From the IMG/VR virus record IMGVR_UViG_3300021399_003599: DNA of 64,000 nt; one strand, written 5' to 3'. This document shows positions 2,896 to 15,019 of the stretch, piece after piece. Under the pieces are notes generated by a model, which worked only from the letters and a program-made list of their open reading frames with translations, had not been told where the DNA came from and did not search any database. A program made the translations under genes and the position numbers. Position 1 is the first letter of the stretch. Each line of letters opens with the position of its first letter. Source of the DNA: a virus. Taxonomy: Duplodnaviria; Caudoviricetes.

Positions 2896-3149
2896 TATAA
2901 CTCCTGAGCAAGTTCATACATCCTTATCACAGCATATTCTGTATCTATCCGAGTCATCCAGAAAGGAGCTTTTTCTCCGACATAAAGAGTATCCATAGAA
3001 GCCTGCATCCCACTTGGAAAAAGCTTTAAGTAAGCTTTTTCTGGATATCCTTTAGACCATATCTCTACACCGTGGGGCTCATATAGCTTTTCTAGTTGCC
3101 ACCCAGAGAGTTGAAGATTTCGTATACCAGGTGTAATATTAATATTCAT
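2895..3149 (-). CDS. hypothetical protein (probable start MNINITPG)
   Basis: GGAGG SD upstream of ATG 3149. Confidence 0.6.
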   Translation of the reverse strand: MNINITPGIRNLQLSGWQLEKLYEPHGVEIWSKGYPEKAYLKLFPSGMQASMDTLYVGEKAPFWMTRIDTEYAVIRMYELAQEL

Positions 3150-3150
3150 A

Positions 3151-3369
3151 TTATAGAGCATCCTCCTTAAGAACGTCATCAAGAGTCCGAGTCTCATCCT
3201 TGCGGGCCCCGTTAGGAAAAGCAGGGCAGGAAGGATAGCTCCAGAAAGGACAAGTAGTACAATCCTCGAAGGTGTCCTGGTTCAGGCATCCCATGAGTTT
3301 AAAGGTCTCAACTGCACGGTCTGCGGTCCCAAAGAGCTGCTCCCACACGGTTTCCTGATGCTGAGTCAT
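3151..3369 (-). CDS. hypothetical Cys-containing protein
   Basis: GGAGG SD; CTTCPF motif. Confidence 0.65.
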   Translation of the reverse strand: MTQHQETVWEQLFGTADRAVETFKLMGCLNQDTFEDCTTCPFWSYPSCPAFPNGARKDETRTLDDVLKEDAL

Positions 3370-3379
3370 ATGAATCCTC

Positions 3380-3589
3380 CTAGCGAAGTTCGACCTTCTG
3401 AATGTAAGCAGTATTTGCTAAATCTTGATTTACCCAGTTGTTTGTACCTGGAGGAAGTTGATCATATCCTGCGCGAATTAACTCCCTTTCTGCATCTGCT
3501 ATCTGATAATAGACAGTTGTAAAACGATGGTCTATTTCACCAGTGAAGTTATTATAAACACAGTAAACAGGAACGTACATGAGACTCAC
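3380..3589 (-). CDS. hypothetical protein
   Basis: first gene after promoter 3621-3649. Confidence 0.6.
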   Translation of the reverse strand: MSLMYVPVYCVYNNFTGEIDHRFTTVYYQIADAERELIRAGYDQLPPGTNNWVNQDLANTAYIQKVELR

Positions 3590-3620
3590 CTTCTTTCCTT
3601 TCCTTACTTTCTATAAATAT

Positions 3621-3649
3621 ATTATATCATAAAAAAGAACGCCCGTCAA
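3621..3649 (-). promoter_or_regulatory. sigma70-type promoter TTGACG-17-TATAAT
   Basis: consensus boxes with 17-nt spacer; same motif recurs about 20 times in the window. Confidence 0.8.
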
Positions 3650-3672
3650 GTAGAAACTTGACGAGCGTTCTT
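3635..3672 (-). terminator. intrinsic terminator hairpin that contains the -35 box of the next promoter
   Basis: AAGAACGCTCGTCAAGT-TTCT-ACTTGACGGGCGTTCTT followed by T tract. Confidence 0.7.
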
Positions 3673-4103: not shown

Positions 4104-5234
4104 TTAATAATCTATATCAGTATAGTTAAAAGGACAAAGATCATCAATCTTACCGTACTTGCGGGCAGCGAACAAAAACTTCTTGTGCTTAGAATAGAGA
4201 GGATCACCTAAAACCTTGAGAGCATACTCCTTCTGAGTTCGATCGTTGTACAAGACAAGAGCTGAATTCCAAAGAGAAGCCATGTGATAAATCTTATACA
4301 AATGACGATCTACGACATTCTTAACCTCCTCAATGTTAGCCATAACATCATCTGAAAAACCAAAGACCTTGAGATCATGATGGTTCGAGTACTCAAGCCA
4401 CTGCGCGAAGTTAGTCTTCTCTAACTCCGCAATAAATCCCTTGTCCCAGTTATAACGCAGAGCCCGCAGGGCAAGATAAGAATCCTGCTTAAACTTAATC
4501 AGCTTTCCATCGAAGAAATGAATAACCATTCCCTCAGCGTTCTCTCGCTCAGGAAGAGCAAGAGCCTCCCCAAGAGTCTCACAGTTTAGACGCTGGGCAA
4601 CAGAAAATCCATTCTGCTCCCACTCAGAATTGAGTAAGCATCCCTCAGTCCAACTTCCCGTCTCGATATCAACATAACCAAGAAGAACAATGTCTCGGTG
4701 CGGATAATGAATTACATGCTCCTCGGGATCCAATAGCTCAAACAGAAAAGTCTTGTGCGGGAAACGCTCTATCATGTGCTTCGCGCACATATACATTCGA
4801 CTATTGGAATGAAGGAACTCAGTAAACGACAAAGCAATCTCACTATCAAGGCGTCCGCGAGTAGAAAGAGCCGGCTCTCCGTTGTCATCCCACAGAATGC
4901 CCAGAGAACCATCAAGCTTATCTACAGCAATTACATTAGCATTAAAGTTAGGCTTAAAAGTAGACTCAAAGCTTCCCTCCTCATCGCAGAGATGATAGGT
5001 TCCCTGCTCCTGCTCAATGGTGAAAAACTTAGCGAAAGGTCGAGCAATAACGTTATCGTTCTTATCGCAGATCAACCCACGACACACCGTGGTCTCTATC
5101 GTCCAGTATCCATCATAGGTAGCCTTAGGAGTATAATTATAAATAACCTTATCGTGATACTCACGAGCAGTGATGTACCCGTTCTCAATGTCCTCACGAA
5201 GCTTCTGAATGTTAACAAGCTGATCGAGCTTCAT
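4104..5234 (-). CDS. T4 Rnl1/RnlA-like RNA ligase
   Basis: IYNY...CRGLI...ARPFAKFF; motif I KLDGSLG; STRG; TFLFEL; motif IV EGMVI; IKFK. Confidence 0.9.
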   Translation of the reverse strand: MKLDQLVNIQKLREDIENGYITAREYHDKVIYNYTPKATYDGYWTIETTVCRGLICDKNDNVIARPFAKFFTIEQEQGTYHLCDEEGSFESTFKPNFNANVIAVDKLDGSLGILWDDNGEPALSTRGRLDSEIALSFTEFLHSNSRMYMCAKHMIERFPHKTFLFELLDPEEHVIHYPHRDIVLLGYVDIETGSWTEGCLLNSEWEQNGFSVAQRLNCETLGEALALPERENAEGMVIHFFDGKLIKFKQDSYLALRALRYNWDKGFIAELEKTNFAQWLEYSNHHDLKVFGFSDDVMANIEEVKNVVDRHLYKIYHMASLWNSALVLYNDRTQKEYALKVLGDPLYSKHKKFLFAARKYGKIDDLCPFNYTDIDY

Positions 5235-7177: not shown

Positions 7178-7606
7178 TTACCACCAAAGACTGGGAATTA
7201 TCTCCGCTAAAATAGACAGAGCTGCTTTTTCATACTCGGGTGTTCGGAAAATATTCTCGTCTTTTAATGCTTTTTCTATATATTGACAAATTAAAAGACA
7301 AGTTTCTCGTTTTGTCAGCTCAACTTTTTCTCGGATGGGTTTATCTTTTTCCGTCCATCCTGTAATTATATACGCTTCTATTTTATGAGAGTCAAGATCT
7401 ACTATTTTATCTGCAATATCAAGATAAACTTTAATGTGCTCATACAGCCATGTCATCAGAGTATAATCTAAAGAATAGGTTTCACGTAAATCAAAAGCAT
7501 GTTTCTCTTTATCTTTTTTATTAACCTTTTTGGAAGAATTAAAGACACAATCTTCCTTTGAAGATATCCCTATCTTATTTAGATAATAATGATGACGTTT
7601 TGACAT
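7178..7606 (-). CDS. hypothetical protein
   Basis: 142 aa ORF ending PSLWW. Confidence 0.75.
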   Translation of the reverse strand: MSKRHHYYLNKIGISSKEDCVFNSSKKVNKKDKEKHAFDLRETYSLDYTLMTWLYEHIKVYLDIADKIVDLDSHKIEAYIITGWTEKDKPIREKVELTKRETCLLICQYIEKALKDENIFRTPEYEKAALSILAEIIPSLWW

Positions 7607-7625: not shown

Positions 7626-7735
7626 ATCAAACGGACATTTTGAGAATTCTAAAAAAATGTTAGAATCGAACTAACCTTAATTGTTTTTAAGACAAAATTT
7701 TCACCTTGAAGTAAGAACTCTCCCATCACGTTGAT
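7626..7735 (-). ncRNA. Y-RNA-like ncRNA copy 1, with anticodon-like arm and T arm
   Basis: ATCAACG-T-GATG-G-GAGAGTTCT-TACTTC...AGAATTCTC-AAAA-TGTC-CGTTTGAT; internal GTTAG-TTCGATT-CTAAC. Confidence 0.7.
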
Positions 7736-7916: not shown

Positions 7917-7996
7917 ATCGCCAGGGTTGGACTTGAACCAACAATCTGCTGTCAGCGTTACCCGCCAGCCGTCTTGCCTTTAGACGACCCAGCGAC
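7917..7996 (-). tRNA. tRNA-like RNA with aberrant anticodon arm, no encoded CCA
   Basis: acceptor CGCTGGG/CCTGGCG, D arm GTCT/AGAC, T arm GTTGG-TTCAAGT-CCAAC; anticodon arm GCTG-GCG-GGTAA-CGC-TGA-CAGC. Confidence 0.6.
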
Positions 7997-11507: not shown

Positions 11508-11536
11508 ATTATAATATAAAAAAGCTTATCTGTCAA
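11508..11536 (-). promoter_or_regulatory. sigma70-type promoter for micro-protein and tRNA operon
   Basis: TTGACA-17-TATAAT. Confidence 0.75.
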
Positions 11537-12278
11537 GAAGAAGATAATGATCTATAACCGAAGCGTTTGTGTCTATAATAAATTGATTAATCTTTTCATA
11601 ATTAGGTGTTTGCGGCAACTTGCTAAAAATCTCTGCCTTTAAGAGACTTTCAGTTTCACGATGTTCAAGCTTATACCATTCAGGATCAATTTCAATTTGT
11701 AATCCCGCTCGTTTCACGAAACAACCATGTTTAATGTCTTTTAACTCTTCTGCATCAATATTAGTTCTATCAGTAAGAATCTCTCCTGTTAAAAGAGCTT
11801 CGGCTCCCATGCGGCAAGTGCGGCAAAAGTGATATTGACATTTGCTAATCTTTTCTGGGGTAACGCCAATTTGATTATGGATCATTTTATCAAGTCTTCT
11901 TTGTTCAGAAGTAGCAAAGCCAAAAAAAGTTGTAGCTATTTTTTTACTAATGAAATCTGCTTGATTCTCTTGGATCTTTTTTCCAACAACGCCCAGCTCT
12001 GCGTCTCGATGGATACCAAAAAACTCAATGATATTCGGGTTAGCCTCAGCTAACATCGCAACAAATTTATCAAAACTATAAAAACAAATATCTCCAGCGG
12101 ACATTCTCTTAGATTCAAAATCTTTAGATAGTAAAATATCTTCTGCAGATCTTACGATAAAACCTCTAATATCAATATCGGAATTTTCATCTGCGGTACC
12201 ATAAGCATGAGATCCCGCAAGATAAACACTATCACAACCTGTTGGACTAAATTGATCAAAGTAATTTTTGAATGACAT
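11526..12278 (-). CDS. RlaP-like (DNA pol beta superfamily) nucleotidyltransferase
   Basis: GSHAYGTADENSDIDIRG and ANPNIIE motifs; start MSFKN at 12278 with GGAG SD. Confidence 0.85.
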   Translation of the reverse strand: MSFKNYFDQFSPTGCDSVYLAGSHAYGTADENSDIDIRGFIVRSAEDILLSKDFESKRMSAGDICFYSFDKFVAMLAEANPNIIEFFGIHRDAELGVVGKKIQENQADFISKKIATTFFGFATSEQRRLDKMIHNQIGVTPEKISKCQYHFCRTCRMGAEALLTGEILTDRTNIDAEELKDIKHGCFVKRAGLQIEIDPEWYKLEHRETESLLKAEIFSKLPQTPNYEKINQFIIDTNASVIDHYLLLDR

Positions 12279-12295
12279 TTTTTCTCCATTAAAAA

Positions 12296-12559
12296 GTGAC
12301 TGAGGAGTTCCGCACGCTCCTCGCAAACCTGATGTTTATTTCTTCGTGCGGTGACACAGGCTTACCGCTTATAGCTCGTGCGCGCTATAGAAGAAGGACT
12401 TCCCTCTTGACAACGTGTAGGCAGGTGCCCCTCTAACCCTAACCTACGGAGGACCGGCGCCCTATTCTCGCCAGCCCACTCCCACAAGTATTCTTCCTCA
12501 TTAAACTAACCGCCCACGGAGGACAGTAAGGGACTCGAACCCTTATCCTTGTTTATAAA
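12296..12559 (-). ncRNA. circularly permuted tRNA-like domain fused to a structured 3' domain
   Basis: order: loop TTTATAA, ACAAG, T arm, acceptor hairpin ACTGTCC/GGGCGGT, D arm, CTTGT, then at least five hairpins. Confidence 0.65.
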
Positions 12560-12883: not shown

Positions 12884-12969
12884 TGGTGGGAGAGGTGAGA
12901 CTCGAACTCACACAACTAAAAGTTACTTGCTCCTTAGGCAAGCGCGCCTGCCAATTACGCCACACTCCC
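12884..12969 (-). tRNA. tRNA-Leu(AAG)
   Basis: loop CT-AAG-GA; long variable arm; A73; CCA. Confidence 0.9.
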
Positions 12970-13333: not shown

Positions 13334-14776
13334 TTAACAGTACTTGTAGTTTGTATTGATATACTCTACAATACTGGTGTCGCTTGACTCCAATAGGTGA
13401 ATAAGATTGAAAATCTTCTCACTCAATGAAGTCAAAAGATGAACATTGGGGTTCTTAGGATTTGCTACCTGCGTATGATAATTACCTAGATCAAAGCTAT
13501 AACACTTACAATCACGATTATACTTCTTAGTATAACTATCAAAGCTGACAACTCCTCCACCCCAAGTATCCATAACCTGCATGTCGCTAACAATGAACAG
13601 TCGGTCATAGCGCTTCTTTAGCTGCTGAAAGGCTCCTCCAATTTCAGTCCCATAACCGAGACCGTCATTCTCGCACATATGATCAATGATTGAAAAAATA
13701 TTAACAAGCGGGTTATATCTATAAGTTTGAGCGTGAGTTCCAAACTTAACAAAAGTCAAATTTGGATTCTTAATATAAAGCATTGCCGCAAATACCGCTC
13801 CTACTTCCTTAATAGTGATGTTGCTTTTGGCGCTAATAAGATGTTCCATCGATCCAGAAACGTCCAAGAGAATAGCGGTATTACCTTCAAGAGAAGGAAC
13901 ATTCTGACAAGCAATTCGGAACGCCTTCTCCAGTGAATTCTGAACAACAGAAACACCAGGAGCATTTCGATATGCCTGATAAATTTGATAGGGGAAAACA
14001 AGCGACTTTAGAATGGCGGCTTCATTCTCAATCTGCGGGCACAGCCAATCCGTGATCCATTCAAAATTAATATTACCACAATTAAGAATGTTACGCAGAT
14101 TGCGGATAAGCGCTAGATAACCAAGCTTATGCTCTTCTACAAGACGCTTCCACTCTGCATCCTTCTCCTCAGGAGCAGCAGTTGAGATAGCAACCTCCCA
14201 AGTATCAGCCTTGGGTAGCGCATCATGCTTATAGGCGTTAATTGCGGGCGACGTAACGTGGGTAAGATTAATCAGATCATACATATTATACTGCTTACCA
14301 TTCATCTTATACTTTCCAAGAGAATGGATATTGAGAGTAGACAGATAATCTCCCGCTCCGCGCACAAGTGCGTGAGAGCGCTTACCGTTACCCATATTTT
14401 CAATAATTGAAAACACTTCTGCTACATCGTCTGGACGATGGAAGAAATTGCTAAAGTACATCCGCTTATTTTCGAACTGAACACTGTTAAGCATCGCGGC
14501 AGTGACCTGAGCGATTGACCGCATACCGAGCTCATTGCGGGCAAAGAAGCTGGCTCGTGCAACAAACTCCCAACCACACTCTTGGGCTACTTGCTCAGTA
14601 AGCTCGATATATCGGGCTAGCTGCTTGTCTGAAGTCTCATAGAATCGATCTTCAATATAGGAACTAAAAAGGAAATTAAGCCACTCACTAACAGGAGACT
14701 TAACATAATTAAGTCCACCTTCATAGCTATACTCTCGAGTAGCTTCGGCAATCTGCTTGGAATTAAACTTTGACAT
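13334..14776 (-). CDS. Ro60/TROVE-domain RNA-binding protein with vWA domain
   Basis: YEGG, FARNELGMRS, LGYLALIRNLRNI, SLVFPYQIYQAY; MIDAS LDVSGSM and IVSDMQ. Confidence 0.93.
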   Translation of the reverse strand: MSKFNSKQIAEATREYSYEGGLNYVKSPVSEWLNFLFSSYIEDRFYETSDKQLARYIELTEQVAQECGWEFVARASFFARNELGMRSIAQVTAAMLNSVQFENKRMYFSNFFHRPDDVAEVFSIIENMGNGKRSHALVRGAGDYLSTLNIHSLGKYKMNGKQYNMYDLINLTHVTSPAINAYKHDALPKADTWEVAISTAAPEEKDAEWKRLVEEHKLGYLALIRNLRNILNCGNINFEWITDWLCPQIENEAAILKSLVFPYQIYQAYRNAPGVSVVQNSLEKAFRIACQNVPSLEGNTAILLDVSGSMEHLISAKSNITIKEVGAVFAAMLYIKNPNLTFVKFGTHAQTYRYNPLVNIFSIIDHMCENDGLGYGTEIGGAFQQLKKRYDRLFIVSDMQVMDTWGGGVVSFDSYTKKYNRDCKCYSFDLGNYHTQVANPKNPNVHLLTSLSEKIFNLIHLLESSDTSIVEYINTNYKYC

Positions 14777-14791
14777 ATTATTTACTCCTTA

Positions 14792-14812
14792 CTATCACGT
14801 ATACAACGGACA
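14792..14812 (-). promoter_or_regulatory. leader hairpin mimicking the Y-RNA bulged helix next to the ro60 SD
   Basis: TGTC-CGT-TGTAT-ACG-T-GATAG immediately before T-AAGGAG. Confidence 0.6.
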
Positions 14813-14816
14813 AAAA

Positions 14817-14905
14817 AAGTGCGGATATTCTTTGTTTAGTTTATTTGTTCCTAAGATAAATTCCTATGTTTATTTTAGAAGTAACTAAACAACTATCACG
14901 CACTT
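14817..14905 (-). ncRNA. Y-RNA-like ncRNA copy 2
   Basis: AAGTGCG-T-GATA-G-TTGTTTAGT-TACTTC...ACTAAACAA-AGAA-TATC-CGCACTT. Confidence 0.8.
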
Positions 14906-14916
14906 AACACAAAATA

Positions 14917-15019
14917 TCGTGGAAATGCTTTAATTGGTTTGATTTGATTTAAAGGGTCTTGCTCTTTTTAAAGTAATATTTCCATAAAATATTGAAGTAA
15001 CCAATTAACTATCACACGA
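14917..15019 (-). ncRNA. Y-RNA-like ncRNA copy 3
   Basis: TCGTG-T-GATA-G-TTAATTGGT-TACTTC...ACCAATTAA-AGCA-TTTC-CACGA. Confidence 0.8.

Follow-up and report, generated by a model that had tools for sequence, protein, structure and literature searches.

A phage gene for a TROVE-vWA ring protein carries, one base before its Shine-Dalgarno (SD) sequence, a minimal copy of the helix that characterises the small RNAs encoded just upstream of it. We describe this arrangement in a 64,000-nucleotide stretch of a Caudoviricetes genome (IMG/VR record IMGVR_UViG_3300021399_003599; the window, below, means this whole stretch), and judge from sequence that the hairpin is probably an autogenous translational operator acting by RNA mimicry, in a phage system pairing a TEP1-type TROVE protein with vault-like RNAs. 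An initial annotation had proposed that protein in excess of the RNAs would bind here and block its own translation. Comparison of homologous loci lends this proposal support, through enrichment of the helix at the ribosome-binding site (RBS), covariation, and persistence of the helix without neighbouring RNAs, but the inverted form seen in the window does not occur in its closest relatives.

13334..14776, minus strand: gene for a TROVE-vWA ring protein of the TEP1/p80-like branch, 480 aa (profile, alignment, structure-model and tree comparisons)
14785..14790, minus strand: SD sequence AAGGAG, 8 nt before the AUG at 14776 (read from sequence)
14792..14812, minus strand: candidate operator, a strand-swapped U-bulged helix (4 bp, bulged U14797, 3 bp, 5-nt loop), at −36 to −16 from the AUG
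14812..14818, minus strand: U7 run 3′ of RNA 3, its last U being the first base of the operator (read from sequence)
14817..14905, minus strand: handle RNA 3; 7-bp terminal stem, core GAUA:UAUC, 10-bp upper stem, GUUACUUC at 14885
14917..15019, minus strand: handle RNA 2; 5-bp terminal stem, core as in RNA 1, 10-bp upper stem, GUUACUUC at 15001
15033..15136, minus strand: handle RNA 1 (vault-like); 10-bp terminal stem, bulged U, GAUA:UUUC, 9-bp upper stem, GUUACUUC at 15113
15143..15171, minus strand: promoter of sigma70/sigmaA type, TTGACA-17-TATAAT with extended −10 TG (12/12 match)
7626..7735, minus strand: handle RNA 4; ACG-U-GAU / UGUC-CGU helix as in the operator, T-arm-like hairpin

Three RNAs of 89–104 nt lie between the promoter and the TROVE gene, and one handle is common to all: a terminal stem, a G:C pair, a bulged U, GAUA opposite U(U/A)UC, an internal loop, and an upper stem of 9–10 bp that leads to GUUACUUC and a variable body. 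Their stems differ in sequence with pairing kept, and the region of RNA 3 (14818–14925) folds with a z score of −4.19. The core reads G-U-GAY-N in most of the 67 RNA copies on which our core definition is based; GUUACUUC is conserved more widely than this helix core and is the most conserved motif of the handle RNAs. The leader, on the minus strand from 14812 to 14774, reads UGUC-CGU, loop uguau, ACG, bulged U14797, GAUAG, U14791, AAGGAG, 8 nt and AUG, just as first annotated, and it is indeed a swapped-strand copy of the bulged helix that RNAs 1–3 carry in direct order, stopping one base (U14791) short of the SD. The 3′ partner strands of RNAs 1–3 are UUUCC, UUUCC and UAUCC; the partner strand UGUCC itself occurs in RNA 4. 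GTGATAG occurs eight times on the minus strand of the window, four of them inside the 330-nt RNA/leader stretch. RNAfold places the operator helix at −4.4 kcal/mol, and its core pairs are predicted to form with a probability of at least 0.97 in the full transcript and in every context tried.

The handle helix at homologous ribosome-binding sites

We compared about 180 homolog loci, a set that leaves out the two closest homologs (P0002 and P0003); relatives were found by alignments, a single-protein scan of viral contigs having found none. Proteins were clustered at 70% amino acid identity, giving 34 clusters whose identity to the window protein is 38% or more, and under our strict criterion the handle helix had to end between −26 and +6 of the start codon. 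Such a helix is present at the TROVE RBS in 25 of the 34 clusters, as the inverted form in 13, as the last full RNA in 11 and as a direct mini-hairpin in three, some clusters having two forms. The same search hit 1 of 150 other genes of the same loci (Fisher p = 3e-22, a value overstated because the clusters are related), 1 of 59 window genes (the hit being RNA 4) and 15 of 3086 background windows. A copy of the RNA motif at the gene's own RBS but not at other genes is what a mimicry operator leads one to expect.

Compensatory change likewise keeps the structure. With the two core words fixed and the flanks free, 16 of 20 inverted leaders form the two pairs that come next, against a permutation mean of 6.7 (0 of 20 000 permutations reach 16); because leaders and clusters are partly related, this overstates their independence. 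Four Watson-Crick pair types are found at the second position, and the inverted leaders have at least five different stem sequences. In L044 and L110 an A:U closing pair is present in both the last RNA and the operator.

On the protein tree, the inverted, mini and full-RNA forms intermingle, and by sequence comparison the conserved element is the handle helix at the RBS, not its topology. Conservation upstream of homologous genes, offered earlier as a check, holds for the position of the helix and not for its topology. The helix also persists on its own: in seven inverted clusters no partner RNA was found within up to 450 nt upstream, and in the cluster of L015 and L023 the TROVE gene has its own promoter and a leader that is little more than the helix, with RNA arrays elsewhere on the same contigs. 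At four loci (L084, L086, L038 and L040) the loop contains the SD and the stem the AUG, so that stabilising the helix should block initiation. In one case, L006, the TROVE gene and the last RNA are kept apart by a 251-aa gene, whose final codons, at the TROVE RBS, contain an inverted helix of 7+4 bp.

A number of observations weigh against this interpretation. When the strict definition was frozen and applied to held-out loci fetched later, only one of six was hit. On inspection these loci proved to carry variant forms, with UUCCUUC as a signature of the last RNA and UUAC as a partner strand, and a definition widened post hoc finds the helix in 30 of 36 clusters versus 12 of 548 controls, and in five of the six held-out loci; because of that later widening, the held-out result is weaker than the main one. 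Six clusters are negative even so. GUGAU complements the anti-SD sequence, which may inflate matches overlapping the SD; among control genes with GTGAY, the partner strand occurs in only 1 of 16. The full-RNA form may reflect genome compaction, since full RNAs also adjoin other genes (at 7606 in the window, and in L006). In the window it is RNA 4 that ends about 20 nt before the AUG of a 142-aa gene (7606–7178, minus strand), for which we found no Pfam or PHROG match and only unnamed viral clusters in the Atlas; this may be a second regulated gene or mere packing. The closest relatives compared, L160–L163 (57–63% identity), lack the inverted hairpin, their last RNA ending 1–6 nt before the SD. 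Among distant family members the clade motif was found in only 1 of 40, and outside the clade there was no enrichment (mini-copies of the own handle in 4 of 37 cases versus 64 of 660 with foreign handles). A DNA pattern scan gave mostly chance hits, with full RNAs in 7 of 80 loci examined. The putative operator is, on these sequence comparisons, restricted to the gut-phage clade of the window protein. One distant locus, L397 (Rhizobium phage RHph_TM39), has at 1040–1070 a direct mini-copy of its own, different handle (a 6-bp stem and UUGCGA) that ends about 21 nt short of the TROVE start; the class to which this one example belongs is not above background.

Two properties of the hairpin itself also weigh on that side. 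It is no more stable than chance would give (z −0.56; among 200 shuffles, 54 fold equally well), so that the hairpin alone would not convince and the support is comparative. It also lacks GUUACUUC and the upper stem. The absence of GUUACUUC is the main weakness of our interpretation, fitting a deliberately weaker site and also a helix that is not the TROVE site at all. Mouse vault RNA is reported to bind TEP1 best with its central loop single-stranded (PMC7916137), and the helix may for that reason not be the main binding determinant.

Several of these points would suit a neutral relic or a chance resemblance: a decayed fourth RNA or an RNA-RNA junction, helped by the SD-like GUGAU and tight gene packing. 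Besides the chance-level stability and the lack of the inverted form in the closest relatives, there are only 3 bp above the bulge, and RNA-RNA junctions yield the same word order. At such junctions, however, the pairs form in 12 of 49 cases (2 of 49 if only Watson-Crick pairs count, versus 15 of 20 inverted leaders), several stem sequences reach one structure, and control genes stay at or below about 2%. We regard this explanation, already disfavoured at the family level, as very improbable.

A steric model and its competitors

A structural switch that sequesters the SD is not supported: the probability that the SD is unpaired is 0.28 versus 0.37 across the operator-helix comparison in an ensemble calculation. 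Because the helix hardly alters SD pairing, any action is likely to be steric. In the model we favour, an autogenous operator by mimicry, transcription would start at its predicted site of about 15136, the first base of RNA 1, and one promoter would yield the three handle RNAs and then, by read-through past the U7 run, the TROVE gene. Newly made TROVE protein would first occupy the full RNAs, which add the upper stem and GUUACUUC. Once protein exceeded RNA, a free ring of about 55 kDa would settle on the minimal copy at −36 to −16, adjoining the SD, likely as a steric block to 30S loading, so that output of the protein would track the RNA supply. The strand swap would alter only the looped end of the helix and leave the helix itself unchanged. 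We infer the transcription units, the use of the operator helix as a TROVE-binding site, the order of affinities and the repression.

Mimicry operators are a known kind, the leaders of ribosomal proteins S15, S8, L1 and L20 and the Escherichia coli thrS operator being autogenous translational operators of this type. As in these, the protein's own RBS bears a reduced copy of its presumed primary RNA site, and titration of the repressor would fall to the primary RNA. The phage case, judged from sequence comparison, would differ in mimicking a small phage RNA, in having a TROVE ring as its protein, and in allowing three interchangeable topologies, one of which would make the partner RNA itself the operator. 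The use of such an operator by a TROVE protein appears new as far as we have found: no autoregulation of Ro60, Rsr, TEP1 or any other TROVE protein, and no operator for Ro60, is described in the literature searched, which covers few subscription journals.

The order last RNA, U run, inverted helix and SD recurs (in the window, L044/L110, L384/L386 and L054), and this recurrence would also fit autoregulation at the level of the transcript, in which the protein stabilises the terminal stem of RNA 3 ahead of the U7 run and so provokes termination, or brings a nuclease to the operator to cleave or degrade the mRNA there. The U7 run is possibly a 3′ end or a partial terminator. A related protein, phiRo60 of Thermus phage phiLo, forms RNA complexes that bind the host PNPase, but these slow the enzyme rather than speed it (PMC12135203). 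Many of the operators, moreover, are not preceded by an RNA or a U run, the SD and the AUG lie within several of them, and the terminator scan makes no call at the U7 site after RNA 3. We consider this explanation unlikely.

Tandem RNAs under one promoter need separating, and the handle might instead be a processing signal for another nuclease of host or phage that frees the RNAs, the copy at the RBS trimming the 5′ end of the mRNA or fixing a translation rate with no TROVE feedback. The wider conservation of GUUACUUC, which could be the true TROVE site and is missing from the operator, would agree with this. On the other hand, TROVE RBSs with no RNA to be freed keep the helix nonetheless, and other genes do not show it, so that we give this explanation a poor chance. 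A last alternative is positive control, with bound protein shielding the processed 5′ end of its own mRNA or freeing the SD from the U run. The U run does pair with the SD in a 71-nt fold, and the phiRo60 complexes do attenuate PNPase (PMC12135203). In the full transcript, however, the RNA 3 stem and downstream coding sequence outcompete that pairing, the helix does not free the SD, and operators with the AUG inside the stem could hardly activate; we find activation highly implausible. We rank the competitors of the mimicry operator in the order termination or decay, processing by another factor, neutral relic, and activation.

A TEP1-type protein and vault-like RNAs

The gene was first labelled ro60, a name that does not suit it. 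Its product belongs to the TROVE-vWA proteins: PF05731 scores above its cut-off and vWA_Ro60 weakly, the residues of the vWA metal-binding motif (D305, S307, S309, T377 and D398) are invariant, and a predicted structure model (pLDDT 86.5) shares the ring fold of Ro60 structures (TM 0.63–0.74). Within this group, profiles score TEP1 far above canonical Ro60. Profile A1, built from the clade of the window protein, gives TEP1 68–112 bits and canonical phage Ro60s 27–40 bits; profile A3, from distant relatives, gives TEP1 188–221 bits and Ro60/Rsr about 100. TEP1 also aligns full-length by HHalign (426 columns, probability 99.2). Full-length kinship to canonical Ro60/Rsr was not found, A1 matching the Xenopus, human and Deinococcus proteins at 25–39 bits over part of their length, whereas canonical phage Ro60s reach about 260–306 bits. 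A quick tree places TEP1 on the phage-family side of a long branch, across from the canonical Ro60s, while a tree constrained to group TEP1 with canonical Ro60 is not rejected (p-AU 0.41). Unlike TEP1, the phage protein has no NADase, NACHT or WD40 regions, and no MVP was found among the window proteins scanned.

The protein phiRo60 (PDB 9KOP, 9L5Y) falls on the same side of the tree as TEP1 and the window protein, and is the best sequence match among solved structures. Its K142 aligns with the invariant R139 of the window protein, given a presumed numbering offset. It binds a minimal stem-bulge-stem RNA with a KD of 16.6 nM, is named Ro60 and has RNAs (Yrl1 and Yrl2) selected by CGAA; no autoregulation is described in the parts read (PMC12135203). 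The region upstream of its gene lacks GUUACUUC. At L389 657–685, the gene is preceded by a perfect promoter of host type and by a short leader, nearly all of it a single stem with an internal loop that ends about 11 nt ahead of the AUG; this could be an operator in an experimentally tractable system. These comparisons suggest that many phage genes annotated as Ro-like, that of the solved phiRo60 included, belong to the TEP1 branch. The family extends beyond phages, with chromosomal TEP1-type TROVE genes preceded by GUUACUUC RNAs in Lentzea (L168) and Dactylosporangium (L184). P0121 is a TROVE-TerD fusion of 1127 aa with a weak match to a RING family (SCO0854).

The small RNAs, first described as Y-like, have vault-RNA geometry instead. 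Y RNAs and YrlA carry GNCGAAN0-1G on the 5′ strand, which the phage RNAs lack. An Rfam search of the window, at the gathering score and at E ≤ 10, gave no Y, YrlA or Vault match and nothing else relevant. In human vtRNA1-1, 1-2 and 1-3 a terminal stem of 7 bp is followed after 13 nt by GUUACUUCG, and the 3′ stem is preceded by a run of pyrimidines (PMC10087102). The window RNAs, similar in length, have the same layout, with a terminal stem, a 13-nt spacer (from closing G15127 to the motif at 15113; 13–14 nt in relatives), GUUACUUC and a pyrimidine run before the 3′ stem, a comparison made post hoc and by eye after a literature search for GUUACUUC. They differ in an inner core that is a U-bulged GAUG:UUUC rather than CUUUA/CUCU and in a handle without the Pol III A box, and they stay under the RF00006 gathering score (best 14 bits, E 9.2, for one L127 copy, against a cut-off of 34). 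Upstream GUUACUUC co-occurs with the protein type, being present in 8 of 10 named TEP1-type phage loci versus 0 of 5 canonical Ro60 loci. The TROVE domain is the part of TEP1 that binds vault RNAs (PMC7916137). We found no paper linking phage TROVE RNAs to vault RNA in the literature searched.

Some resemblance to canonical Ro60/Rsr-Y RNA pairs (Xenopus, human, Deinococcus Rsr-Yrn1, YrlA/YrlB; PMC4201824; RF02553) remains beyond the ring fold: the small RNAs are gene-adjacent, a bulged helix lies near the RNA ends, and many relatives have a T-arm then D-arm module, absent from RNAs 1–3, that matches YrlA weakly (E 1e-5 to 1e-6; some relatives reach 34–38 bits against a cut-off of 69). PMC12135203 cites Y-like RNAs in CcrColossus and phage G, and because of this and the weak YrlA matches of the module, some handle RNAs have probably been listed before as putative YrlA. 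In phage csAssE-Sib (L390), annotated tRNA-Tyr and tRNA-Lys genes (366–438 and 511–584) fall within GUUACUUC handle RNAs, and the annotation may have mistaken tRNA-like bodies for tRNAs. Locus L094 has at 2970–3670 an array of at least five handle RNAs downstream of the TROVE gene, with one more fused to the TROVE SD.

Genomic setting and significance

The window is a phage genome segment with replication genes, an endolysin gene and 19 tRNA genes. Gut or rumen-type metagenomes, and bins with a Bacilli or Clostridium label, are the main sources of its relatives, which makes a host among the Bacillota likely. The RNA array and the tRNA cluster are served by perfect TTGACA-17-TATAAT promoters, of which there are three in a span of 2 kb (15171, 13322 and 13179, minus strand). 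This tRNA-rich region also encodes an RlaP-family nucleotidyltransferase (11526–12326, minus strand) and a T4 Rnl1-type RNA ligase (4104–5234, minus strand), and an Rnl1 gene lies close downstream of the TROVE gene in L383, L384, L386, L387 and L388; these neighbours suggest a role in RNA repair. A zinc-dependent deaminase gene (16136–16579, minus strand) lies upstream of the locus, and a tRNA-Leu gene with anticodon AAG is at 12884–12969 (minus strand). Between tRNA-Tyr and RNA 4 there is a structured non-coding stretch of about 180 nt (from 7917–7995 to about 7740, minus strand) with several hairpins and a U run.

More broadly, and tentatively, TEP1-type TROVE proteins with homologs of the animal vault RNAs may be widespread in phages and bacteria, and in one gut-phage clade translational operators may have arisen repeatedly as minimal handle copies. 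If true, this would be the first TROVE autoregulation known to us, would provide a natural map of recognition by TEP1-type rings, and would point to a prokaryotic origin of the pair of TEP1 and vault RNA. A stoichiometry sensor of this kind would imply that free TROVE protein is costly and that the ribonucleoprotein is the functional unit. The operators would be natural minimal ligands of 20–30 nt, open to direct mutational tests, and the link to TEP1 and vault RNA would give a compact bacterial model, with one gene, in which to study the function and origin of that RNA.
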